From sequence record NC_031081.1: a stretch of 45,206 bases of DNA; one strand, 5' to 3'. Positions 128 to 45,206 of this stretch are shown here, one piece after another (within the stretch, counting starts at the first letter, position 1; each line of letters opens with the position of its first letter). Source of the DNA: Escherichia phage Envy. The notes beneath the pieces are model-generated. The model saw only the letters and a program-made list of their open reading frames with translations. It was not told the DNA's origin and did not search any database. Made by a program: the position numbers and the translations under genes.

Positions 128-201
128 ACCGCCCGCCGTTAAGCTGGATCGAGAACGCGACCAACTACGTTACCCGAAATCTTTTTAATGAAAATGCTTG
201 A
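1..201 (+). CDS. small membrane protein, 3' part; same gene as 45038..45206, wraps across window edge
   Basis: frame continues from ATG at 45038 (MNKVFAILLMFVIGALGFILHC...), hydrophobic helices, stop near 199-201. Confidence 0.45.
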   Translation, partial: ALGFILHCVQGVLMVAWMIRHPTRWLDDGYSEAAVDWVEKNINRPPLSWIENATNYVTRNLFNENA

Positions 202-226
202 CCGCTCAGGCGCAACCAAGTAAATT
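198..226 (+). promoter_or_regulatory. possible sigma70-like promoter (TTGACC-17-TAAATT) with two GCAACCAAG direct repeats just downstream
   Basis: hexamer spacing read by eye upstream of 292 CDS. Confidence 0.3.
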
Positions 227-291
227 AGCAACCAAGCCGAACGGGGTGGCTTCCAATAACCCCGATACATGTGAAAATGAGGAATTGGAAA

Positions 292-4188: not shown

Positions 4189-4463
4189 CACCAGAAGGCA
4201 AGGTGCAGCGTCACCTTATGAAACGGGTTAAAGAGGTTGGCGGATTCTGCCGAAAACTGGCATGGGAGGGGCGCGCAGGTGCGCCCGACCTGATTATTAT
4301 CATCAACGGCATAATAGTGTTCGTCGAAGTGAAGCGCCCAGGCGGAAAACCGAAGCCGCACCAGGTACGTGAACATGAGCGAATGGCCCGCCGCGGTGCT
4401 GACGTTCGCGTTATCGACAACATATCCGACTGCGATTTATTGGTTGCTGAATTGGTCGCATAG
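4185..4463 (+). CDS. VRR-NUC domain nuclease
   Basis: GAPDLIIIINGIIVFVEVKRPGGKPKPHQ matches VRR-NUC pattern; ATGA overlap with HNH stop. Confidence 0.7.
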   Translation: MTPEGKVQRHLMKRVKEVGGFCRKLAWEGRAGAPDLIIIINGIIVFVEVKRPGGKPKPHQVREHERMARRGADVRVIDNISDCDLLVAELVA

Positions 4464-4503
4464 CGGTATAGTGTGCCGGTTAGCCATATCGAGGATTTTA
4501 GAG

Positions 4504-4677
4504 ATGATTGAAGAAAAACGTTGTAGTAATTGCGGCTGTGTAAAGCCGCTATCCCAGTTCCACAAATACACCGGTAAGACTGCGCGCAGTCCAGACGGGT
4601 ATCGGGCAGAGTGCAAATCGTGCCGCAATAAGAAAGAGCGCGAACGGCAGCGCCGCTACCGTGCAGAACAAAAATAA
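4504..4677 (+). CDS. small zinc-ribbon protein (57 aa), paralog of the HNH N-terminal modules
   Basis: CSNCGCV...FHKYTGK...CKSCRNKKERERQRRY; internal ATG of track ORF 4369..4677 with upstream AGGA. Confidence 0.45.
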   Translation: MIEEKRCSNCGCVKPLSQFHKYTGKTARSPDGYRAECKSCRNKKERERQRRYRAEQK

Positions 4678-4943: not shown

Positions 4944-6368
4944 ATGGCACGTTTCCGACGTCGCGAATATCAGAAGTTGATAACCGCGTTCATCCTCAAG
5001 CATAAGCGCTGCAATATTTGGGCGACAATGGGGTCGGGTAAAACCGGCGCGACCATGTGGGCGCTGAATAAAATGTTCCAGACTGGCGTCCTGTCCCATC
5101 ATGAGGACCGCGTACTGGTGCTGGCCCCGCTGCGTGTTGCGTCGGGTACATGGCCACCGGAACAGGAGAAATGGCGATTCTCATCCCTGCTGGTCGTAGA
5201 CGGCACCGGGCCGGAGAAGGACCGTATTGCGGCGCTTGAGAGCGACGCTAACGTGGTTTGTGTTAACTACGATGTGGTTGAGTGGCTGGTCGACTATTAC
5301 GGCGATGCGTGGCCCTTTACGGTCGTTGTTGCCGATGAATCGACTAAGCTGAAAGGCTATCGTAGCAAGCAGGGGAGCAAGCGCGCCCGCGCACTGGCAG
5401 CGATTGCACATAAACACGTCAAGCGCTGGATTAACCTTACCGGCACACCAGCGCCAAACGGGCTAAAAGACTTATGGGGTCAGACGTGGTTTGTCGACGG
5501 TGGCGAACGCCTCGGCAGTAGCTATAAGGCATTTACCGACCGCTGGTTCATTAGCAAGCCTGTTAAGCCTGGCAGCTTCACTATGCAGCACGCTCCGCTA
5601 AAGAACTCCGAGAAAGAGATACAACAACGTCTGTCAGATGTATCCCTCACCGTTGACGCGGCTGAATACTTCGGGTGCGACAAGCCAATCTATACGCCGG
5701 TTGTTGTGGACCTGCCGAAGAAAGCGCGCAAGATTTATGACCAGTTTGAAAGCGAGCTATTTGCAGAACTGGAAAGCGGAACAGTGGAAGCGGCGAACGC
5801 GGCGTCGAAGACAATTAAGTGCCTTCAGCTTGCATCCGGCGCTGTGTATAAGGTGGACGAAGACGGCGAACGGACCGACGAGTGGGTGAAGATTCACGAC
5901 GCGAAGCTGGACGCGCTGGAAAGTATTGTGGAGGAGTTGAACGGAGCGCCGTTGCTCGTTGCGTATCAGTATAAGCATGACCTGGCACGTCTTAAGAAGA
6001 AATTTCCGCACGGCGTTGCGTTGGGTAAAGGTAAGCAGGGCAATAAGGATATGGAAGCATGGAACAGGGGCGAGATCCCCATCATGTTTGCACACCCGGC
6101 ATCGGCGGGCCACGGCCTTAACTTGCAGGACGGCGGTCATCACCTGGCAATCTTCTCCGATACCTGGAACTTTGAGCACTTTTCGCAGATCGTTGAGCGT
6201 ATCGGGCCGGTTCGCCAGATGCAGGCCGGGCACCCTCGACCGGTATTCGTCTACATTATCCAGGCGCGCGGGACACTGGACGAACTGGTCGCGGAGCGTC
6301 GCGACAGTAAGCGAGACATTCAGGACGATTTAATGGAATACATGAAAGCTAAAAAGGCGCGCAAATGA
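4944..6368 (+). CDS. SNF2/DEAD-like superfamily 2 helicase
   Basis: Walker A MGSGKTG, DExx-like VVADES, NLTGTP; internal ATG at 4944 with RBS. Confidence 0.8.
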   Translation: MARFRRREYQKLITAFILKHKRCNIWATMGSGKTGATMWALNKMFQTGVLSHHEDRVLVLAPLRVASGTWPPEQEKWRFSSLLVVDGTGPEKDRIAALESDANVVCVNYDVVEWLVDYYGDAWPFTVVVADESTKLKGYRSKQGSKRARALAAIAHKHVKRWINLTGTPAPNGLKDLWGQTWFVDGGERLGSSYKAFTDRWFISKPVKPGSFTMQHAPLKNSEKEIQQRLSDVSLTVDAAEYFGCDKPIYTPVVVDLPKKARKIYDQFESELFAELESGTVEAANAASKTIKCLQLASGAVYKVDEDGERTDEWVKIHDAKLDALESIVEELNGAPLLVAYQYKHDLARLKKKFPHGVALGKGKQGNKDMEAWNRGEIPIMFAHPASAGHGLNLQDGGHHLAIFSDTWNFEHFSQIVERIGPVRQMQAGHPRPVFVYIIQARGTLDELVAERRDSKRDIQDDLMEYMKAKKARK

Positions 6369-7377: not shown

Positions 7378-7385
7378 TAAATTGG

Positions 7386-7414
7386 TTGCAGTACGGGATT
7401 GGTTGCATTATATT
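7386..7414 (+). promoter_or_regulatory. sigma70-like promoter (TTGCAG-17-TATATT) with two ATTGGTTGCA direct repeats
   Basis: hexamers and spacing upstream of 7461 CDS. Confidence 0.45.
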
Positions 7415-7415
7415 G

Positions 7416-7443
7416 AGGGTGTTCCGAAGGGAACGCCCTTTTT
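7416..7443 (+). terminator. terminator-like hairpin ending the upstream operon
   Basis: AGGGTGTTCC-gaa-GGGAACGCCCT then TTTTAAT. Confidence 0.45.
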
Positions 7444-7460
7444 AATATGAGGATTTGACA

Positions 7461-7703: not shown

Positions 7704-8161
7704 TGAAAATTTTACAAGAAGAGAAAGCGTATTGGGTAGCACAGTGTCTTGAAGCCCGCGAGAAAGCGGAAGGAGCTACCGCGCTGGCGGACACCTACCT
7801 GGCGAGCTATGAAGGCGAGGAGAAGGTCCGAAAGGAATTAGAGGAACGCTTCGAACTGCTGGGCGAACTGATCACCATTATGCAGCGCACCGGGTACACA
7901 ACATCCGTATCGCTCACCCGGCTAACCGCCGATGCCCTGCGCGAGCATTACAAACTGGCCGAGGAGTACGTCCGTCCGAAGGGCAGCCAGTCTTCGATCC
8001 CGCGGAAAGGACTGGTGCATATAGCGTGGCGTGCAAACGGCAGCTACTATTCCGATAGCCGACCGCTCAGTAAGGAGGAGATGTCCAGAGTCCAACGCGT
8101 GCTATCCAGCGGAAAGAAAACCGCCCTGTATGCGATAGATCCAGACTATGCAGAAGAGTGA
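7703..8161 (+). CDS. hypothetical protein (152 aa)
   Basis: ORF coupled to neighbours (TAAATAATG). Confidence 0.55.
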   Translation: MKILQEEKAYWVAQCLEAREKAEGATALADTYLASYEGEEKVRKELEERFELLGELITIMQRTGYTTSVSLTRLTADALREHYKLAEEYVRPKGSQSSIPRKGLVHIAWRANGSYYSDSRPLSKEEMSRVQRVLSSGKKTALYAIDPDYAEE

Positions 8162-8633
8162 GCAGAAAGATAGCTGGCGCACGCCGCCAGCTTTATTTAA
8201 ACCGCTGCGCCGTAAGTTCCGATTCCGTTACGATATGGCGGCAAGCGACGCCAACCACCTGCTACCGCGTTACTTCACGGCAGAGCACAGCGCGCTTGAT
8301 GTGGACTGGTCCGAGTTGAAAGGGTGGAAGTGGTGCAATCCGCCGTATTCCGATCCGCTGCCGTGGGTCGAGTGCGCAGCGCACGGACGCCGGACTGTCA
8401 TGCTACTGAATCAGGACACGTCGACGAAGTGGGCGAGGCTGGCCCGGAAGACTGCAAACCTGATAATTCTTCTGGACTGGCGGATTAGATTCATTCACGC
8501 CGTCACCGGTGAAGTCGGGCCGAGCAATAACAAGTGCCAGCAATTGATAATATTTGACGAAGCGCCGCCCAGCGGCAGCGCACAAATTGAAATAATGAGC
8601 GAGAGTGAGCTACATGAATATCTTAGTCGTTGA
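8148..8633 (+). CDS. Dam-like DNA N6-adenine methyltransferase
   Basis: WRTPPALF...FRYDMAASDANHL...WCNPPY (NPPY catalytic motif). Confidence 0.75.
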   Translation: MQKSEQKDSWRTPPALFKPLRRKFRFRYDMAASDANHLLPRYFTAEHSALDVDWSELKGWKWCNPPYSDPLPWVECAAHGRRTVMLLNQDTSTKWARLARKTANLIILLDWRIRFIHAVTGEVGPSNNKCQQLIIFDEAPPSGSAQIEIMSESELHEYLSR

Positions 8634-8838: not shown

Positions 8839-9350
8839 AATTACTGATTTGCGATTTGGATGGCGTTATTAACGGTTCAAGCGATGCGCGTGCCGACCTG
8901 GTTCCGGGCATAAAAACAAAATCCACCTTTTGGGCGAAGTGGCACAAAGCGCATATACGCGAAGATCTGAACATGGATATGCTGCCGCTGCTGACCATGT
9001 ACAAAGAGCAAGGCTTCGAGATCGCGTATCTGACCAACCGGCAGCGAGAATGCTGGGAGACTACCGTCGAGCAATTGGAAGTATTCCCCGTAGGCCGGTT
9101 GTTTATGCGCCACATGCTGGACGATACCCCGCCGCCAGAGTTTAAAGCGTGCGCCGTGTTCAAAATGGTCTGCTATGCGGACGTATCGGAACTGGTCATC
9201 ATTGAAGACTGCCCGAAGAACATCGCGGCCATTCGACGGGCGTGCAGCGATCTGGTCTCGAAAATTTATGCGATAAACGTTGCAAAATTTACTTGCAACC
9301 AACCTATTGGTTGCACTATAGTTAACTCGTCGGGGCGATATGGCCCCTAA
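8835..9350 (+). CDS. HAD-superfamily hydrolase-like protein
   Basis: N-terminal LICDLDGVI (HAD motif I DxDG); 3' end overlaps the next promoter. Confidence 0.55.
   Translation: MKLLICDLDGVINGSSDARADLVPGIKTKSTFWAKWHKAHIREDLNMDMLPLLTMYKEQGFEIAYLTNRQRECWETTVEQLEVFPVGRLFMRHMLDDTPPPEFKACAVFKMVCYADVSELVIIEDCPKNIAAIRRACSDLVSKIYAINVAKFTCNQPIGCTIVNSSGRYGP
9293..9322 (+). promoter_or_regulatory. sigma70-like promoter (TTGCAA-18-TATAGT) overlapping inverted repeat TGCAACCAA-ccta-TTGGTTGCA
   Basis: hexamers plus perfect 9-bp inverted repeat. Confidence 0.45.
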
Positions 9351-12981: not shown

Positions 12982-13002
12982 AGCTAAATCCTCATAAATT
13001 GG

Positions 13003-13030
13003 TTGCAATCCTGGTTGAGCGGTGTAATAC
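13003..13030 (+). promoter_or_regulatory. sigma70-like promoter (TTGCAA-16-TAATAC) for the lipoprotein gene, preceded by ATTGGTTGCA
   Basis: hexamers upstream of AGGAGA RBS and ATG 13062. Confidence 0.45.
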
Positions 13031-13061
13031 TAAAACTCACCCAAATATAGGAGATGATACC

Positions 13062-23205: not shown

Positions 23206-23535
23206 TTATTCAGTCTCAGACGAGGGGGGCCATTGACCCCCGTCTAGTCTGAAAGACTGGGCTTTGTCCCGCCTGTCCCGATCGGCTAAACCCCGCGGCA
23301 GCACTGGCGGGGCGGGGGTGCTGTCCCGCTTTGTCCCGCCCCTTGTTTGTCCCGCTTTTTGTCCCGTTTGGTTTATGCAGTAAAACTGAATAGGTATGCG
23401 CTTTTCAGAGGGGTGCCAGATCGGGACGTCCCGCTTGTCCCGCTTTTAGTTTATGCAATAATAGTAAATAAGTATGCAGTTTTTGAGGGGCGGGACAAAA
23501 CGGGACGTCCCGCTTGTCCCGCTTCATTATGCGGG
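23206..23535. repeat. noncoding element copy A: conserved hairpin, GTCCCGC iterons (8 or more), palindrome GGGACGTCCC, three AT-rich TTTATGCA units
   Basis: first ~58 bp and a ~53-bp iteron block identical to copy B at 39428..39625. Confidence 0.8.
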
Positions 23536-24250: not shown

Positions 24251-24272
24251 ACCCGCTATTTAAGCGACCAAA

Positions 24273-29086: not shown

Positions 29087-29116
29087 TTGCAATCCTCGTA
29101 TTGGTTGCACTATATT
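29087..29116 (+). promoter_or_regulatory. sigma70-like promoter (TTGCAA-18-TATATT) followed by operator-like palindrome TTGGT-tgcac-ACCAA (29116-29130)
   Basis: -10 plus leader shares about 23 identical nt with promoter at 39245..39273. Confidence 0.5.
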
Positions 29117-29145
29117 GGTTGCACACCAACAACGAGGACACACAA

Positions 29146-29910
29146 ATGAGACTGACGAAAGACATTAAAAACCAGATTCTGGCTAACATCCTGCGCGACC
29201 ACGAAATCGCGACCGAAGCCAAATCAATCATGATGGACTCTCGAAATCTGGCGTACGCCATTACGCTGGACTGTATGCCGGAAGGCATTCGCACTTTCGC
29301 CGAGCTACTCTCGCGCATTAAAGCAATCGGCGATGACCCGTCGCAGATGTACGGAGTAAGCGTATACACCAACAAGGCGACGTATAGACATGACGACGAC
29401 AACCCATATGGTATAGGCAGCGTTTACGACGCCACTTTCGAAATCAACGCAGGCGGAAACGTCCGTACCGTGTCATTGAGCGGAGACGGATACCGATTCC
29501 GAGTACATCGAGGATACTGGGAGTATAAATACATGAATAAACTATCCCCCGATCTCGGCGATATTGTGCCAGGGTATGAGGAAATTTTGTTAGCGTCAGT
29601 GTGCGAAGTCGACGACGACGGGAAAGCGCTGCCGATATATAAGCCACGCGGTCGTATAGACTACCCGGCGGGTCATGATTTCTGCAAGCGCCTGGACCGT
29701 AACGACAAGGCCCGCCGTGAGTTGCGTGCTAAGTATGACGCGTTCAAACTAACTGTTACCGGCGTGCTGGATATGCACAATACAGATAAGAAGCTGATCA
29801 AGGCGTGGCCTGAAGTTGAACAGTTCATTCCTTACCCGGACAAGCCGAAGTCCACGGCGGTGGCGCTGGACGTGAAAACACTAAACGAGATTTGCGGTAT
29901 TCCGCGCTAA
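29146..29910 (+). CDS. hypothetical protein (254 aa); opposite-strand insertion in the head gene module
   Basis: GAGGA RBS; own promoter and terminator. Confidence 0.6.
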   Translation: MRLTKDIKNQILANILRDHEIATEAKSIMMDSRNLAYAITLDCMPEGIRTFAELLSRIKAIGDDPSQMYGVSVYTNKATYRHDDDNPYGIGSVYDATFEINAGGNVRTVSLSGDGYRFRVHRGYWEYKYMNKLSPDLGDIVPGYEEILLASVCEVDDDGKALPIYKPRGRIDYPAGHDFCKRLDRNDKARRELRAKYDAFKLTVTGVLDMHNTDKKLIKAWPEVEQFIPYPDKPKSTAVALDVKTLNEICGIPR

Positions 29911-38486: not shown

Positions 38487-38635
38487 TGCTCAGTCTCCTC
38501 GATCTCGTCAACAGTCTTATAGTCGCCATCGCATACCGTAGCGATGCCGTCCATCTCATAATCAGCTATGCAGTCGTCTACTGAAATAAACTTCTGCGAG
38601 AATCCAGCCATTAGCGCTCTTTGCATTGGTGTCAT
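38483..38635 (-). CDS. small hypothetical protein (about 50 aa), not in ORF track
   Basis: fills gap; ATGA overlaps at both ends. Confidence 0.35.
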   Translation of the reverse strand: MTPMQRALMAGFSQKFISVDDCIADYEMDGIATVCDGDYKTVDEIEETEQ

Positions 38636-38901
38636 TTGCTCAGTCTCTTGTGTTTGCCAACCTGCGCAACGATTGGCTTACGGCGTAATGTAATACGGAT
38701 GCCGATTGGTTGCAATGATGTTTTCACCGGCAGTCCGTGTTCGTTCATGAACTGGTGCAGCATTTTGGTCTGCGTCAGCGGCTTGACGTCATCCCGATAG
38801 CTCCAGAACACAGAATCACCCTCAATCGCATTCTGCGCCCATAAACGGATGCTATGCAGGGGAATATACCAGGATAACCATTTAGCGCGTCTACGTGCCA
38901 T
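38632..38901 (-). CDS. hypothetical protein (89 aa)
   Basis: track ORF in coupled gene chain. Confidence 0.5.
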   Translation of the reverse strand: MARRRAKWLSWYIPLHSIRLWAQNAIEGDSVFWSYRDDVKPLTQTKMLHQFMNEHGLPVKTSLQPIGIRITLRRKPIVAQVGKHKRLSK

Positions 38902-38910
38902 TTTATCCCC

Positions 38911-39216
38911 TTATTTCGCAAGTAAGGCGTGTAGCTCACGCTGAGCCGTGATGCGAGCGATGTTAGTCACTGCCGTCTCTCCGATGCCAAACCGGTACGC
39001 AAGACGCTCACGGGCGAATTTCATCGCATACTCGCAGATTGCCACACGCAATGGTTCCAGTTCATCCAGGCTGACGCCCATGTTGTCGAACGCTGCAAAG
39101 ATTGCCTGCTGCGCGAACATTACAGCCTGGCGTGCGTGGTCGGCGTTGCCGTTTGTGTGCTTCGCTTCATAGAGCGCTGCGACCGCTGATGTGTAATTCC
39201 AGATTAATGCTTTCAT
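38911..39216 (-). CDS. hypothetical protein (101 aa)
   Basis: GAGGA RBS; downstream of promoter 39245..39273. Confidence 0.55.
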   Translation of the reverse strand: MKALIWNYTSAVAALYEAKHTNGNADHARQAVMFAQQAIFAAFDNMGVSLDELEPLRVAICEYAMKFARERLAYRFGIGETAVTNIARITAQRELHALLAK

Positions 39217-39244
39217 CGTTCAGTCCTCTTGTTGGTGTGCAACC

Positions 39245-39273
39245 AATATAGCAGGGCGCCAGGCAGGGTGCAA
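39245..39273 (-). promoter_or_regulatory. sigma70-like promoter (TTGCAC-17-TATATT) with palindrome TTGGT-N5-ACCAA at 39232-39246
   Basis: -10 and leader near-identical to promoter at 29087..29116. Confidence 0.5.
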
Positions 39274-39427
39274 CCAATATTAATCACGCGCATGAAAAAG
39301 TTGATCGCTATCTGCTGTGACTGCAAACCGCATTTTCACTCAGCATAATACAACCTGCATTGGTTGCCTAGTTCATCGACGACCGCACTTAGCATCATGC
39401 TGCCGTGTATTTTGCAATCCCCGGATT

Positions 39428-39625
39428 TTATTCAGTCTCAGACGAGGGGGGCCATTGACCCCCGTCTAGTCTGAAAGACTGGGGTGCTGTCCCGCTGTCC
39501 CGCTCCTCTGGAAGCCGCGCCATCCGTGGCGGGACGGGGGTGCTGTCCCGCTTTGTCCCGCCCCTTGTTTGTCCCGCTTTTTGTCCCGCTTACTTTATGC
39601 AATAAAACTGCATAACTATTCACTA
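39428..39625. repeat. noncoding element copy B: same hairpin, GTCCCGC iterons and TTTATGCA AT-rich unit as copy A
   Basis: identical ~58-bp hairpin module and ~53-bp iteron block at same relative spacing (108 bp). Confidence 0.8.
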
Positions 39626-39673
39626 TATTCACACTACACGGCAACCAATACGACCAGATAAAAACACTCAAAA

Positions 39674-39755
39674 TGGCGACCAATGCGCGCAAATTTTAAT
39701 CGTCTAGCGATATGGGAATCCCCATATTGGCGACCAATGCGCGCAAATTTTAATC
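39674..39755. repeat. two 28-bp direct repeats (TGGCGACCAATGCGCGCAAATTTTAATC) flanking palindrome ATATGGG-aatc-CCCATAT; second copy overlaps primase stop
   Basis: perfect direct repeat, period about 54 bp. Confidence 0.7.
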
Positions 39756-42014
39756 TTTTAAGTCGTCATCGGTCGCCGAAAGCGTGATGGGTATCTTCGT
39801 TTTGATGACGATATTCGACGACCCATAGATGGCCCCGGTGTGCGGATCGGTATAAAAACCGAGCACGCCGCGCTCGACCATATCGTCAATTGCCTTCGTC
39901 GATGTGCCACCTTTCGCAAGCCCAGCCTGGCGGACAATTGCCGATTTGCTGAATCCGGTATGGTCCGGGTTATCTTCCATCAGTTTTTCCAGCGCTGCAT
40001 AAAGCACTTTCTCTTTTTCGTTGCGCGGTCCTGCGGCGTTCTCTTCCTTAACTGCGGCCTTGCCAGCGGCCTTTGCCTGCTCAATGGCGAACGGTGCCAG
40101 GGCGACCGGTACGAGGTAAAGAGTCTCGTCGCGTGGCGTGGAGGCAATCGGCTTGACGTCCCATCCGGCAACCACGTCGCCGAAGTCTGGCCCGGTGCTG
40201 GTGGACTGGTGCGCCTCGAACGCTTCTGACTTGCGGAGATCCACCTTCACCTTGCACTTGAGCAGGACGAAGCCACGCGGCGCTTGCTTGATGCCGTTAC
40301 GTGCTTTTTCGTGATACAGGTTCAATTGGCCTGGCTGGTTGTCGTCCGGCTGTTCAAGGAAGAAAGCAGAATCGACAGCACCATGAAGCGCGCCGGATCC
40401 GCGTGGCGTTCGGCTTCCGTTTGCACCCTTAGCCGGGTGGTGGATGACGCCCGCACTGCCACCTGTATTTTCCGCGATGGCCTTCAGCGCTTTGACCACT
40501 TCGCCCATATCGCTGGCGTTGTTCTCGTCGAACGGTTTTGCATCGGCGGACCGCAGCGCAACAGTCTGGTTGAGTGAGTCGAACGCCACCAGGCCAACCG
40601 GCTCGCCGTTAGCGGTGCGGTTGATGAAGCTGATAACTTCACGCAAGCCGGATTTGCTGGTGATATCCCAGCCTCGTGATTGCAGATCGATAATGTGCAG
40701 CTTGTCCAGGTCGTGCTCATATTTAATCTGCAATGCTTCCTTACGCTGGTTAGAGGCTTCGCCACCTTCCGCGTCGAAATAGAAGCAATGAGACTGGACG
40801 ACCTTCGCACCGCCGAACGGAATACCGGCGGCAACCGCGCCCATTTGGCCCAGCACATAGAACGATTTACCGATGTTCGACTCGCCCGCCATATACCAGG
40901 TCGATTTAAAGTTAATCAACCCCTCGATGATCGGGTCGTGCTTACTGAACAGCGCAACCGGCTCGTTGTCCAGGTCTGCATCAGTACACACGCCGTACTC
41001 GTCGCCGTCTCCGACCGCATCAACGATATGTTCATAGCACGATTCCACTTCCTCATCGTCCAGTCCCGGAAGGATGGCGGCGATTTGCTTACGTGACATG
41101 TTGTGCGGCTCGACGTTCAGGTGGTCCGGGATCCCGATAAGACGTAGCGCCAGGTGCTGGTGTCTGTTCAGTTCCGAGCAACACTCGTTGCCGGTGTGCA
41201 TACACTTGAAACGGATCTCGCCATCCTTGACCATGATAGCCGTCGACCCTTCGCCGCTGTGCAGATGTTCGTTCGGGCACGGCACTTCATAACCGCGACC
41301 GGAAGATAACTCATCGAATCCTGCCTGGAAGCACCAGTCCAGAATGCCGTCTGCCACTGCGTCGTCGCCCTGGGTAAGCTCGCGGCGTACTTCCTCCTTC
41401 TCCACGCCCAACTTATCCGCCAGGCGAAGCAGACGACGGACGCGGGCACGCTTGCCGTAGTGGCACTTAATAACAGACTGCTGGTGTGGCAGGTACATCA
41501 GGCGGTTTGTGTCTTTCGTGCAATCGTCGAAGTCCACATCTGACAGACCAAGTTGGTGTAATAGCGCATACTGGACACGGCCCAGGTCTTCAGCCGGTAC
41601 AGGCTTGTCCGTGAGTACCAGGAATCGAGCGCAACGCGTGCCGCCTTTCAGCGGGTGGCGGTCGCCGGTTGTGGTGTGAAATACATGTTCCAGTCCCGCG
41701 TCGATGAACGCCTTACGGCAGCGGCGCAGGGTGCGGGTGTCGGTACGGTCAATATCGAAGAACAGGATCGAGCGGTCCACTGCACTGGTCTTGCGGCGCA
41801 AGCCGTCACTGGTATACGCCACGATACCATCGGCCTTACGCTTGCGGCGCGCATACTCGGCTTTATCTTCCGTTTTGTTGATATGCACCGAGGAGATTTC
41901 TTTCGCATCATTGATAAATTCGAAAAACTCTTCGGTAGTCATCTGGAAGTTTTCCGCCCTGGCTTTTTCGCCTTTTTTAGCGGGTCGTGTTACAGCGAAT
42001 TTAATCAAGCTCAT
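39750..42014 (-). CDS. DNA primase-helicase (prim-pol-like N-terminus, RecA/DnaB-like ATPase C-terminal half)
   Basis: 754 aa; LFFDIDRTD acidic motif; Cys/His cluster; Walker A GESNIGKS. Confidence 0.75.
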   Translation of the reverse strand: MSLIKFAVTRPAKKGEKARAENFQMTTEEFFEFINDAKEISSVHINKTEDKAEYARRKRKADGIVAYTSDGLRRKTSAVDRSILFFDIDRTDTRTLRRCRKAFIDAGLEHVFHTTTGDRHPLKGGTRCARFLVLTDKPVPAEDLGRVQYALLHQLGLSDVDFDDCTKDTNRLMYLPHQQSVIKCHYGKRARVRRLLRLADKLGVEKEEVRRELTQGDDAVADGILDWCFQAGFDELSSGRGYEVPCPNEHLHSGEGSTAIMVKDGEIRFKCMHTGNECCSELNRHQHLALRLIGIPDHLNVEPHNMSRKQIAAILPGLDDEEVESCYEHIVDAVGDGDEYGVCTDADLDNEPVALFSKHDPIIEGLINFKSTWYMAGESNIGKSFYVLGQMGAVAAGIPFGGAKVVQSHCFYFDAEGGEASNQRKEALQIKYEHDLDKLHIIDLQSRGWDITSKSGLREVISFINRTANGEPVGLVAFDSLNQTVALRSADAKPFDENNASDMGEVVKALKAIAENTGGSAGVIHHPAKGANGSRTPRGSGALHGAVDSAFFLEQPDDNQPGQLNLYHEKARNGIKQAPRGFVLLKCKVKVDLRKSEAFEAHQSTSTGPDFGDVVAGWDVKPIASTPRDETLYLVPVALAPFAIEQAKAAGKAAVKEENAAGPRNEKEKVLYAALEKLMEDNPDHTGFSKSAIVRQAGLAKGGTSTKAIDDMVERGVLGFYTDPHTGAIYGSSNIVIKTKIPITLSATDDDLKD

Positions 42015-42024
42015 TGCCGTTGCC

Positions 42025-42354
42025 TTACTTTGAAGTTTTATTATTGCGTACCCAGGAGCGCACTGTGCTCTGATTAATTCCGGTCAACTCGGCAATCATC
42101 GCCCAGGATTTACCTTCCTCACGTAGACGGATAACCTGTTTTTTGTATTCTTCCATTTCTTCATTGTGTTTTTGCAGCTTGCTTGCTGCCGTGCCGTTGA
42201 GCAATTCCAGCTTCGCGCGCAATTCTTTTTCGGTAAGTCGCAGACGTTCGATTTCAAATAGCACCGCACCCACGGCATCGGTATACGCCCAGGACCGGCT
42301 AGTCTCACTGCAAACAGTCTTCGTTAACATTTCGATTGCGTCGTTTACATTCAT
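42025..42354 (-). CDS. HTH DNA-binding protein, putative early regulator
   Basis: 109 aa; C-terminal HTH SWAMIAELTGINQSTVRSWV; first gene of minus operon. Confidence 0.6.
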   Translation of the reverse strand: MNVNDAIEMLTKTVCSETSRSWAYTDAVGAVLFEIERLRLTEKELRAKLELLNGTAASKLQKHNEEMEEYKKQVIRLREEGKSWAMIAELTGINQSTVRSWVRNNKTSK

Positions 42355-42368
42355 TGTTCTGCCCCCAG

Positions 42369-42383
42369 TTGGTTAATGACCAA
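42369..42383. promoter_or_regulatory. operator-like palindrome TTGGT-taatg-ACCAA in leader of minus-strand early operon
   Basis: perfect inverted repeat between -10 and RBS. Confidence 0.45.
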
Positions 42384-42385
42384 TG

Positions 42386-42414
42386 AAACTACACCTAAAA
42401 CCGCAGGGTGTCAA
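42386..42414 (-). promoter_or_regulatory. sigma70-like promoter (TTGACA-17-TAGTTT) for minus-strand early operon
   Basis: consensus -35 on minus strand. Confidence 0.45.
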
Positions 42415-42427
42415 CTCCTCTGGAATA

Positions 42428-42458
42428 TTGAAACGGGCGCGCACGCGTGTAATAATAC
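42428..42458 (+). promoter_or_regulatory. sigma70-like promoter (TTGAAA-16/17-TAATAAT)
   Basis: hexamers; followed about 30 nt later by a terminator. Confidence 0.45.
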
Positions 42459-42463
42459 TTTCC

Positions 42464-42521
42464 GTCTCATTGTCTCTTATTGGTTAGCGCCGTCGCATTT
42501 TGCTTCGGCGCTTTTTTTTTG
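42464..42521 (+). ncRNA. candidate short promoter-to-terminator transcript (about 55 nt): small RNA or leader attenuator
   Basis: lies between promoter 42428..42458 and hairpin plus T-run 42486..42521; no ORF. Confidence 0.3.
42486..42521 (+). terminator. rho-independent terminator-like hairpin with 9-T run
   Basis: AGCGCCG-loop-CGGCGCT then TTTTTTTTT. Confidence 0.5.
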
Positions 42522-42531
42522 AAATTAGTTG

Positions 42532-42560
42532 TTGACTCCCTTCTGCAACCAATCTAATAT
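42532..42560 (+). promoter_or_regulatory. strong sigma70-like promoter (TTGACT-17-TAATAT) for plus-strand early genes
   Basis: near-consensus hexamers, 17-nt spacer containing TGCAACCAAT. Confidence 0.55.
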
Positions 42561-42620
42561 TCACTCCGTCGACAGGGCATACCGCCCGGACACCTAAACT
42601 TAACCAATCGGAGATACACC

Positions 42621-43136
42621 ATGTTTGAACAAATCGTAAACTTGATTACTCGCGGCGTAGTAGCGCTGGAAACCATCGCTAAGCATTATGAAACCGTTGG
42701 CGCTGCCGTTGGTAAGCAGGAAGATAAAAAGCCATCTAAGGCGAAAAAAGAAGTCGTCGAAGACGACGACGATGGCGCTGAAGACGAAGCACCGGCGAAA
42801 ACCAAAAAAGCACCGGCTAAAGGTAAGGCTAAAAAAGAAGTCGTAGAAGATGACGACGACGATGCCGAAGACGAAAAACCGGCTAAGTCTAAAAAAGCAC
42901 CGGCAAAAGGCAAAGGCAAGAAAGATGCCGATCCGCTGGCAGAGATGCGCGACGAGATCAAACAGTATGCCGCGATTATTGCCGGTGGTGACGACGACGA
43001 CGCGAACGACGAATTTGACGACCTGCTGGAATCGTTCGAGATCAAATCAATCGCCAAGCTGGAAGATGAAGACGTCGAAGACTTCCACAAAGATCTTAAA
43101 GAAATCGTCGAAACTTATTTCGAACTGGAAGATTAA
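42621..43136 (+). CDS. acidic low-complexity protein with tandem 29-aa repeats
   Basis: 171 aa; repeats KKEVVEDDDDGAEDEAPAKTKKAPAKGKA x2; first gene after promoter. Confidence 0.6.
   Translation: MFEQIVNLITRGVVALETIAKHYETVGAAVGKQEDKKPSKAKKEVVEDDDDGAEDEAPAKTKKAPAKGKAKKEVVEDDDDDAEDEKPAKSKKAPAKGKGKKDADPLAEMRDEIKQYAAIIAGGDDDDANDEFDDLLESFEIKSIAKLEDEDVEDFHKDLKEIVETYFELED
42744..42917. repeat. 87-bp tandem repeat x2 inside CDS 42621..43136
   Basis: two adjacent units about 85 percent identical. Confidence 0.7.
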
Positions 43137-43184: not shown

Positions 43185-43436
43185 ATGGCACGCTTCACGC
43201 TAATTGAGGCGGTGGATTCCCGCGACCAGCGCCCGTACTATTGGCTATTCGAACGCATCGGCAGCTTTCAGTCACGCGTTGCCGTAATAGACAAACGCCG
43301 CAACACCCCCGCGCAAATTAAGCGCACCACCTTTATTAATCCCGACTTTTATATTTGGGCGGATTCAAATCTGGAATATGTTCGCTTCGCAGTTGCATCC
43401 GAAGCAAAAACAATCGACCGCTGGGAGACAAAATAA
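43185..43436 (+). CDS. hypothetical early protein (83 aa)
   Basis: AGAGGA RBS before ATG. Confidence 0.55.
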   Translation: MARFTLIEAVDSRDQRPYYWLFERIGSFQSRVAVIDKRRNTPAQIKRTTFINPDFYIWADSNLEYVRFAVASEAKTIDRWETK

Positions 43437-45045: not shown

Positions 45046-45206
45046 AGTATTCGCAATCTTATTGATGTTTGTTATCGGCGCGCTGGGCTTTATCCTGCAT
45101 TGTGTGCAAGGCGTGTTAATGGTGGCATGGATGATTAGACATCCGACCCGCTGGCTGGATGACGGCTATAGCGAAGCTGCCGTCGATTGGGTGGAGAAGA
45201 ACATCA
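45038..45206 (+). CDS. small membrane protein, 5' part (continues at 1..201 through terminal repeat)
   Basis: ATG overlapping nuclease stop; hydrophobic N-terminus. Confidence 0.45.
   Translation, partial: MNKVFAILLMFVIGALGFILHCVQGVLMVAWMIRHPTRWLDDGYSEAAVDWVEKNI
45080..45206. repeat. terminal direct repeat, identical to 1..127
   Basis: identical sequence at both window ends. Confidence 0.9.

Follow-up and report, generated by a model that had tools for sequence, protein, structure and literature searches.

A short asymmetric word on predicted promoters of Escherichia phage Envy and its relatives, a candidate dispersed operator

The DNA considered here, called the window, is the whole stretch of 45,206 nucleotides (nt) of Escherichia phage Envy (NC_031081.1); it has 100% identity, in a rotated form, to the complete record of Escherichia phage Sloth (KX534339.1, genus Dhillonvirus). 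About ten predicted promoters of this phage, and those of its relatives, carry the word (A/G)TTGGTTGCA. The conserved unit is asymmetric, i.e., the 9-10-mer R-TTGGTTGC-A, and is met in direct, inverted and single arrangements. It is read here, with moderate confidence, as an asymmetric operator, dispersed over the genome, on which a trans-acting repressor would act.

The most over-represented 10-mer of the genome is ATTGGTTGCA, with 10 copies for 0.07 expected (~145-fold). Besides these 10 exact sites there are 5 one-mismatch sites; shuffled sequences contain 3.4 sites (maximum 8) with at most one mismatch. The core, TTGGT[TC]GC, is found at 23 sites, 15 of them intergenic (binomial p = 2.7e-13), intergenic DNA making up 6.3% of the genome. 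Four further core sites are localized in the last 45-62 nt of a gene, directly before the next start codon. The initial annotation had described a TTGGT/ACCAA motif family recurring in many intergenic regions, and every coordinate that it listed is real. The copies confirmed are 212-219 and 228-235 (inverted 8-mers), 7381/7398, 9294-9303 (inverted) with 9306-9315, 12998-13007, 29100/29114, 39247/39278 (minus strand) and 42544-42553 (inverted). To these are added copies at 4439/4451, 24264-24271, 38705-38714 (inside a gene), 39359 and 39640-39738 (three copies).

In Dhillonvirus the consensus reads A-TTGGTTGC-a, without a conserved right half. The members of a pair are spaced by 12, 14, 17, 31 or 35 base pairs (bp), or stand head to head (9294-9315); most copies share the direction of the downstream gene. 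Of the operators proposed earlier, i.e., inverted repeats TTGGT-N5-ACCAA at or just after the -10 hexamer, the placement at promoters holds while the repeat does not stand as a functional unit. The word is asymmetric, and the dyad occurs at 3 sites (29115, 39232, 42369) for 1.4 in shuffled sequences, 16 of 100 shuffles having at least 3. The palindrome was rejected as the unit on the basis of this lack of enrichment. Two of the three dyads are the duplicated promoter-leader block itself. That block, thought to be nearly the same for genes 29146 and 39216, is in fact identical over the -10, the start site and the leader (an exact 23-nt inverted repeat).

Generic sigma-70 scans gave no enrichment over shuffled sequences and were used for coordinates only. 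On the predicted promoters (Table 1), three classes of placement are seen: (i) in class A, the TTGCA of the motif plus one base constitutes the -35, followed by a 17-18 nt spacer (4439, 7381, 12998 and, on the minus strand, 39278); (ii) a class B motif stands within the spacer, with exactly 1 bp between its end and the -10, and is either direct (7398, 9306, 29100) or inverted (212-219 at P_SSB, the promoter of the single-stranded DNA-binding protein gene, and 42544-42553 at the early rightward promoter P_R2); (iii) in class C, the motif spans the -10 and the start site (29114, 39247 on the minus strand and, inverted, 228-235). The motif overlaps the RNA polymerase footprint, i.e., -35, spacer, -10 and +1, at variable positions and in both orientations. 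It must be noted that P_9364 and P_29146 have 39 nt in common at 85% identity. At P_39216, the stretch between the two copies varies among relatives and the motifs do not. At P_L, the promoter of the leftward operon of the helix-turn-helix (HTH) and primase genes, ATTGGTCATTAACCAAC is a degenerate motif forming a dyad (42383-42369), an element absent in HK578.

The motif is conserved within Dhillonvirus at orthologous places: HK578, SSL-2009a and Gluttony each have 9 exact copies and 16-18 with at most one mismatch, and SO-1 has 17 with at most one mismatch. Ten promoter regions were aligned for the window phage, HK578, SSL-2009a and SO-1. Invariant columns amount to 129/136 (95%) within the motif vs. 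703/982 (72%) elsewhere (Fisher p = 9e-11), a conservative comparison since hexamers, ribosome-binding sites and some coding sequence are counted among the latter. The bases between paired copies vary freely: those of P_7461 read GTACGGG, TAACTAG, TAATCAT and TAATTAG in the four phages. Unlike ordinary spacers, these promoter spacers contain a conserved block; this suggests that something reads the word itself, and simple copying of promoter cassettes is disfavoured for the same reason.

The word is also found beyond the genus. In Edwardsiella phage eiAU (Eiauvirus), no 10-mer is more over-represented than GTTGGTTGCA, whose 10 copies are 129 times the expectation. Its two-copy layouts match those of the window, e.g., TTGGTTGCA-N18-TATAG-TTGGTTGCA, and a pair spaced by 12 bp and separated from TATAGT by 6 nt. 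Klebsiella phage VLCpiS11a has 13 TTGGTTGC sites, mostly in the form AtGTTGGTTGCaaT-N16/17-TATAGT, and an inverted copy in the leader of its P_R. Serratia phage Smarc3 has 14 sites vs. 3.7 expected; upstream of its Lar-like gene stands TTGACA-17-TATAGT-ca-TGCAACCAAC, with the inverted copy at +1. The promoter upstream of the Lar-like gene bears the motif in eiAU and VLCpiS11a as well, one gene lying between the motif promoter and the Lar-like open reading frame (ORF) in eiAU. Two metagenomic relatives are enriched too (L134, 13 sites in 20 kb; L133, 9 sites in 6 kb), and the two-copy arrangements of the window are met in all five of these phages. In L134, two inverted copies, directly adjoining, take up the whole P_R2 spacer, and a perfect inverted motif comes just after the -10 of P_L. 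The replication module is shared by Salmonella phage St162 and Pantoea phage AH01, in which the motif is not enriched, the 3 sites found in each corresponding to chance. Directly before the core, Dhillonvirus has A, whereas eiAU and VLCpiS11a have G. A scan of viral contigs for paired copies returned mostly unrelated tandem repeats and one Dhillonvirus.

Other copies belong to none of the three classes. Three copies ATTGGT(C/T)GCC come just past the primase-helicase stop codon of the window, and TTGG(T/C)TGC is present at or just past the 3' end of this gene in eiAU, VLCpiS11a, Smarc3, L133, L134, St162 and AH01. This holds for all 3 TTGGCTGC copies of St162 and for 1 of the 3 copies of AH01. 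Origin iterons would form a tandem or inverted cluster beside the initiator gene; 3-4 copies come after the primase-helicase gene in the window and at least 8 in eiAU (in both orientations, within ~300 bp at the gene end), but most copies are at distant promoters. The copy at 38705-38714, inside a gene, is kept in HK578, SSL-2009a and Gluttony while the adjacent coding sequence diverges. Two features stand out: (i) the motif is conserved across genera despite differing neighbouring regulator genes; (ii) copies are always found beside the primase-helicase gene.

We infer real promoters at the predicted places, a protein bound to the motif and repression as its effect. This protein would bind each copy in a sequence-specific way; most likely it would be encoded by the phage and act either as a monomer or as a flexible oligomer. 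The copies being within the stretch that RNA polymerase covers (the -35, the spacer next to the -10, or the -10 and start site), their occupancy would exclude or trap RNA polymerase and shut the motif promoters down together. The putative regulon would comprise P_R2, the promoters of the single-stranded DNA-binding protein gene, of the Lar-like gene and of genes 7461 and 9364, cor, the Nmad5 cargo gene in the head block, the leftward operon at 39216 and probably P_L. A variable position and orientation, with paired copies bracketing the core promoter, is typical of operators, whereas sigma or activator elements need a fixed geometry. Moreover, the motif is present at promoters whose -35 is already good and which call for no activator, e.g., P_R2 (TTGACT-17-TAATAT), P_SSB (TTGACC-17-TAAATT), the Smarc3 promoter (TTGACA-17-TATAGT) and P_R of VLCpiS11a. 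A near-consensus early promoter such as P_R2 presumably fires before any phage protein is made, so the motif would not be needed there for activation; a shut-off or feedback role fits.

Several points weigh against a repressor operator: (i) the promoter assignments are based on geometry and conservation only, the generic sigma-70 scan being not enriched over shuffles; (ii) no DNA-binding protein common to all motif-bearing phages was found in a presence/absence profile of the window proteins over 8 genomes; (iii) where the motif serves as the -35 it is a promoter part too, and an activating or dual role is possible there; (iv) promoter occlusion does not explain the cluster at the primase-helicase 3' end nor the in-gene copy.

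The HTH protein encoded at 42025-42354 had been designated as an obvious candidate binder. That it is the repressor, binding the motif and autoregulating at P_L, is a doubtful proposal. Its gene is the first of the leftward early operon and adjoins the divergent promoters, as expected for a Cro-like regulator. Pfam recognizes HTH_23 (29.6 bits, cut-off 24.6) and Sigma70_r4_2 (27.6 bits, cut-off 25.7), and an HTH of the resolvase or sigma region 4 type belongs to a class able to read asymmetric sites of ~10 bp. While the N-terminal 45 residues are hypervariable (at least 3 allele groups), hardly any change is seen in the C-terminal 60; a DNA-binding half so constant matches an invariant target. 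In L133 and L134, which have the HTH protein, a perfect motif lies ~15 nt upstream of its start codon. However, the family is confined to Dhillonvirus-like phages (24 proteins in 5.8 billion, nearly all adjoining the same primase-helicase on phage-sized contigs of up to ~45 kb), and the motif-bearing eiAU, VLCpiS11a and Smarc3 have no detectable homologue. None was found by six-frame hidden Markov model search in eiAU, VLCpiS11a and St162, nor by tblastn in Smarc3 and AH01. An unrelated Cro/XRE gene occupies the HTH position in eiAU, VLCpiS11a and Smarc3, and is present in the unenriched St162 and AH01 too. It is unlikely that a phage would swap to an unrelated regulator while keeping at least 10 scattered operators. 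In HK578, the N-terminal half of the HTH protein and the leader are swapped, and the P_L dyad is absent. The word outlives the turnover of neighbouring HTH genes across genera, and the identity of its reader is thus a testable question.

The model of the HTH protein (mean predicted local distance difference test score, pLDDT, 85) has helices at residues 3-15, 21-79 (59 residues), 84-91 and 95-107. A long helix followed by a DNA-binding domain, as modelled, recalls serine recombinases; a fold search with this model gave no significant match, the best being a serine recombinase (E = 0.69). Database records label the gene « DNA recombination nuclease inhibitor gamma », « transposase » or « resolvase ». 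A transposase, a resolvase or a Gam nuclease inhibitor was rejected, the HTH being the only domain detected in the 109 residues.

Another target can be proposed for this protein, i.e., the GCGGGACA arrays, of which there are 13-18 copies per Dhillonvirus genome and clusters in L133 and L134, with 0-4 scattered copies elsewhere. The HTH protein and the arrays co-occur in every phage sampled. Both are lineage-specific, so the HTH protein pairs more naturally with GCGGGACA, and the arrays are an equally good or better alternative to the motif as its target. They are carried by two non-coding regions, A (23206-23525) and B (39428-39624), which have 197 nt in common at 85% identity. Each contains 6-7 GCGGGACA copies, including CGGGACGTCCCG palindromes, together with AT-rich « tatgcaataa » units and a long hairpin, cagtctttcagactagacggggg...cccccctcgtctgagactg. 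Region B comes after the primase-helicase gene and region A before the tape-measure gene. Their only label in the SO-1 record is repeat regions A and B. An origin with a second cis-acting replication region is possible, as are RNA elements.

If the reader is not a classical phage repressor, it could be a conserved component of the replication module (the primase-helicase, or a free-standing Lar-like protein) or a host factor, a rather doubtful proposal. In the 8-genome profile, the proteins shared by all motif-bearing phages belong to the replication module only. If the proposal were true, one 9-mer would tie origin-proximal sites to about ten promoters and would couple replication to transcription in at least 4 siphovirus lineages. 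The zinc-ribbon « Lar-like » protein, encoded at 4504-4677, is found in all motif-bearing phages and in St162, and in every motif-bearing lineage the motif stands at the promoter upstream of its gene. An early protein of 83 residues, encoded at 43185-43436, is a further candidate reader. A Dam-like N6-adenine methyltransferase (8148-8633) is present in 6/6 motif-bearing and 0/2 unenriched genomes, and is the sole window protein with this distribution; the match is weak and may be a coincidence, with four independent motif-bearing lineages vs. two without and no obvious mechanism. Given the small number of independent lineages, the Lar-like protein and the methyltransferase are no more than leads. 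Three further candidates were rejected as binder: (i) the Nmad5 protein (29146), since HK578 and SO-1 keep the motif without it; (ii) a common Cro/XRE protein, none being detected in Dhillonvirus while St162 and AH01, which are not enriched, have one; (iii) a common resolvase-type HTH, found neither in VLCpiS11a nor in St162.

It is unlikely that the motif is a promoter-specificity or activator element that would bring RNA polymerase to middle or late promoters or modify it there, in the manner of the T4 MotA box, of the spacer site reported for P1 late promoters or of the Q-binding element. Many copies do supply the -35 in a fixed orientation and at 17-18 nt spacing, especially in VLCpiS11a (consensus AtGTTGGTTGCaaT), and most are oriented with the downstream gene. 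Some phage activators, and Q of lambda, bind at the position of class B (-22 to -14). However, the distance to the -10 is not fixed (1, 5-6, 9 or 17-18 nt, or overlap) and both orientations are met at the same position. Moreover, near-consensus promoters contain the motif; one of them is the first early promoter, which has to be active when no phage protein has yet been made.

Quite unlikely is a replication element or iteron read by the primase-helicase or another replication protein, transcription being a second role or the motif marking transcription-activated origins. The primase-helicase is conserved in all these phages, its C-terminal ~90 residues look, from their sequence, like a winged helix, and copies flank or follow its stop codon in every lineage examined, including St162 and AH01, which have no promoter copies; in eiAU they form the cluster of at least 8. 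On the other hand, most window copies have a place fixed to the base pair relative to a -10 hexamer, the variable C-terminal domain of the primase-helicase does not co-vary with the invariant motif, and the Dhillonvirus GCGGGACA arrays are more iteron-like.

A host (Enterobacterales) DNA-binding protein which would read the motif and couple phage promoters to host physiology is likewise given little credit. The motif is common to phages of E. coli, Sodalis, Edwardsiella, Klebsiella and Serratia that have no shared classical regulator, but the base before the core differs by phage lineage and the related Salmonella and Pantoea phages show no enrichment. Moreover, we know of no E. coli factor or sigma factor that matches the word, which counts against a host reader.

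It is most improbable that nothing reads the motif and that the similarity comes from intragenomic copying of promoter cassettes, some promoters being paralogous over 23-39 nt, since flanks and inter-copy spacers differ while the 9-mer is invariant, both orientations and varied positions relative to the -10 occur, and the word persists across genera in otherwise diverged DNA. By inspection, a sigma-54 promoter (TGGCAC-N5-TTGC) was rejected, GG and GC being 4 nt apart in the motif and not 12, and no copy pair fits; other alternative sigma promoters were rejected for their spacing. A phage RNA polymerase promoter was rejected too: there is no RNA polymerase gene, the large ORFs being those of the polymerase, the primase-helicase, the tail and the tape-measure.

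Among known systems, the layout appears most to resemble the operator network of the P1 C1 repressor. The C1 operators of P1 and P7 are asymmetric 17-bp Op sites scattered over the genome, whose internal TTG can double as a -35. The likeness is one of layout only, i.e., many dispersed asymmetric copies, single or paired and in either orientation, over the -35 or -10 of unrelated promoters. The window word is shorter (9-10 bp) and unrelated in sequence, and no C1-like protein was identified. P1 is temperate and C1 is its identified immunity repressor, whereas the window phage is a virulent siphovirus with no integrase annotated. As with lambda-type Cro/CI and LexA-type systems, sites lie over promoter elements, a candidate regulator gene adjoins divergent early promoters and some promoters have several sites; the motif family differs from such dyads by its lack of dyad symmetry and its varied copy spacing. 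The T4 MotA box likewise belongs to a virulent phage and is an asymmetric 9-mer, placed upstream of a sigma-70 -10 so as to replace or overlap the -35. It always points the same way and stands at one distance from the -10, whereas the window motif has both orientations and at least 4 distance classes. Protein scans gave no MotA or AsiA homologue. The P4 alpha ori/crr and Rep-ori of the staphylococcal pathogenicity islands are replication iterons adjoining the initiator gene. In all lineages, copies directly 3' of the primase-helicase gene recall these iterons; most window copies are at far promoters, and GCGGGACA regions A and B fit the iteron pattern better.

The motif looks like a further example of an ordinary phage control element for which no published description was found: the literature search returned no description of the motif sequence, of Dhillonvirus promoters or of their transcription programme. 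The HK578 record annotates only three consensus promoters, and a search of the window in Rfam gave no family. Common virulent coliphages, the Dhillonviruses have their place in the BASEL collection, in work on bacterial defence (SECphi18) and in the engineering of phages. The motif provides a map of co-regulated promoters and a handle for finding their regulator. Its promoters are portable and probably switchable parts for engineering.

Table 1. Positions in the window of the motif-bearing predicted promoters, of the other copies and of the main genome features.
Feature	Coordinates	Strand	Details
P_29146 (Nmad5 gene), -35-like TTGCAA	29087-29092	+	consensus scan TTGCAA-18-TATATT, 29087-29116
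P_29146, class B motif ATTGGTTGCA	29100-29109	+	invariant in HK578, SSL-2009a and SO-1; upstream spacer varies
P_29146, -10 TATATT	29111-29116	+	
P_29146, class C motif	29114-29123	+	over -10 and predicted start; with ACCAA 29125-29129 gives TTGGT-N5-ACCAA
P_29146, downstream GAGGA	29134-29138	+	ATG at 29146
Duplicated block, arm 1 (-10, start site, leader)	29110-29132	+	23 nt, 100% complementary to 39229-39251
Duplicated block, arm 2	39229-39251	-	promoter and leader of leftward operon starting at 39216
P_39216, class C motif	39238-39247	-	over -10 TATATT (39250-39245) and start site
P_39216, class A motif	39269-39278	-	supplies -35 TTGCAC (39273-39268), 17-nt spacer
P_SSB	198-236	+	TTGACC (198-203), 17-nt spacer, TAAATT (221-226)
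P_SSB, inverted copies GCAACCAA	212-219 (spacer), 228-235 (start site)		16/16 motif columns invariant in four phages
Promoter of Lar-like gene	4439-4472	+	ATTGGTTGCT 4439-4448 (supplies -35), ATTGGTCGCA 4451-4460, TATAGT 4467-4472
P_7461	7381-7414	+	motif 7381-7390 (= -35), motif 7398-7407 (spacer), TATATT 7409-7414
P_9364	9293-9322	+	inverted copy 9294-9303 (TTGCAA = -35), direct copy 9306-9315, TATAGT 9317-9322
cor promoter	12998-13031	+	motif 12998-13007 supplies -35 (TTGCAA 13003-13008); -10 region ~13025-13031
P_R2 (early rightward)	42532-42560	+	TTGACT, 17-nt spacer, TAATAT; inverted TGCAACCAAT 42544-42553, 1 bp before -10
P_L (leftward, HTH and primase operon)	42369-42414	-	TTGACA (42414-42409), TAGTTT (42391-42386), then ATTGGTCATTAACCAAC
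Three ATTGGT(C/T)GCC copies	39640-39738 (39738, 39684, 39649)	-	just past primase-helicase stop codon, upstream of GCGGGACA array
Copy ATTGGTTGCC	39359-39368	+	in 39217-39749 intergenic region; kept in HK578, SSL-2009a and Gluttony
Exact copy in gene	38705-38714	+	antisense strand inside gene 38632-38901
Copy	24264-24271		
HTH protein, 109 residues	42025-42354	-	long helix, then C-terminal three-helix HTH
Divergent promoter region	42355-42620		drives rightward and leftward operons
Rightward early and replication operon	42621 through window end to 10536	+	
Leftward operon	42025-42354, 39750-42014	-	HTH gene, primase-helicase gene
Intergenic gap	39217-39749	 	533 bp, after primase-helicase gene
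Small genes, lysis, packaging, head and tail genes	beyond gap, down to 13300	-	
Opposite-strand genes inside structural block	13062, 29146-29910	+	cor, Nmad5-domain gene

Bases 1-127 and 45080-45206 of the window are identical, as are the two ends of the GenBank record, giving a unique genome of 45,079 bp; this identity corresponds either to a terminal redundancy or to an assembly overlap.

The product of gene 29146-29910 has an Nmad5 domain (Pfam E = 4e-54). This gene occupies a slot between the scaffold and spanin genes, in which the two-motif promoter is conserved and the cargo gene differs by phage. The cargo is Nmad5 in the window phage, Gluttony and SSL-2009a, a 140-residue protein with no function assigned in HK578 (5078-5500) and a RusA-like protein in SO-1 (5082-5600). 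As judged from these sequences, it is a slot for cargo genes with a fixed and regulated (predicted) promoter.

The first early gene (42621-43136) encodes a protein of 171 residues in which lysine-rich stretches (KKAPAKGK) alternate with acidic repeats, followed by a very acidic conserved C-terminal domain. It is conserved throughout the related genera examined; the protein may act as a DNA mimic or bind the nucleoid. Upstream of P_R2, the segment 42428-42519 contains a second predicted rightward promoter, TTGAAA-17-(TG)AATAAT, and, at most ~60 nt past it, a strong terminator (AGCGCCG...CGGCGCT, then T9). A short RNA, or a leader with attenuation, would be expected from this arrangement. At 42479 stands ATTGGTTAGC, a degenerate motif. 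Another terminator hairpin (7415-7446) begins 1 nt past the -10 of P_7461: readthrough RNA from upstream would stop there, while the P_7461 RNA, without the 5' arm of the hairpin, would pass. Finally, the 8-mers GTTGCCGT (26 copies), GCTGCCGT (27 copies) and ACGGCAGC are 14-16-fold over-represented genome-wide, and the words ACGGCAGC, CGGCAACA and ATCGGCAAC are enriched in eiAU, VLCpiS11a and St162 too.

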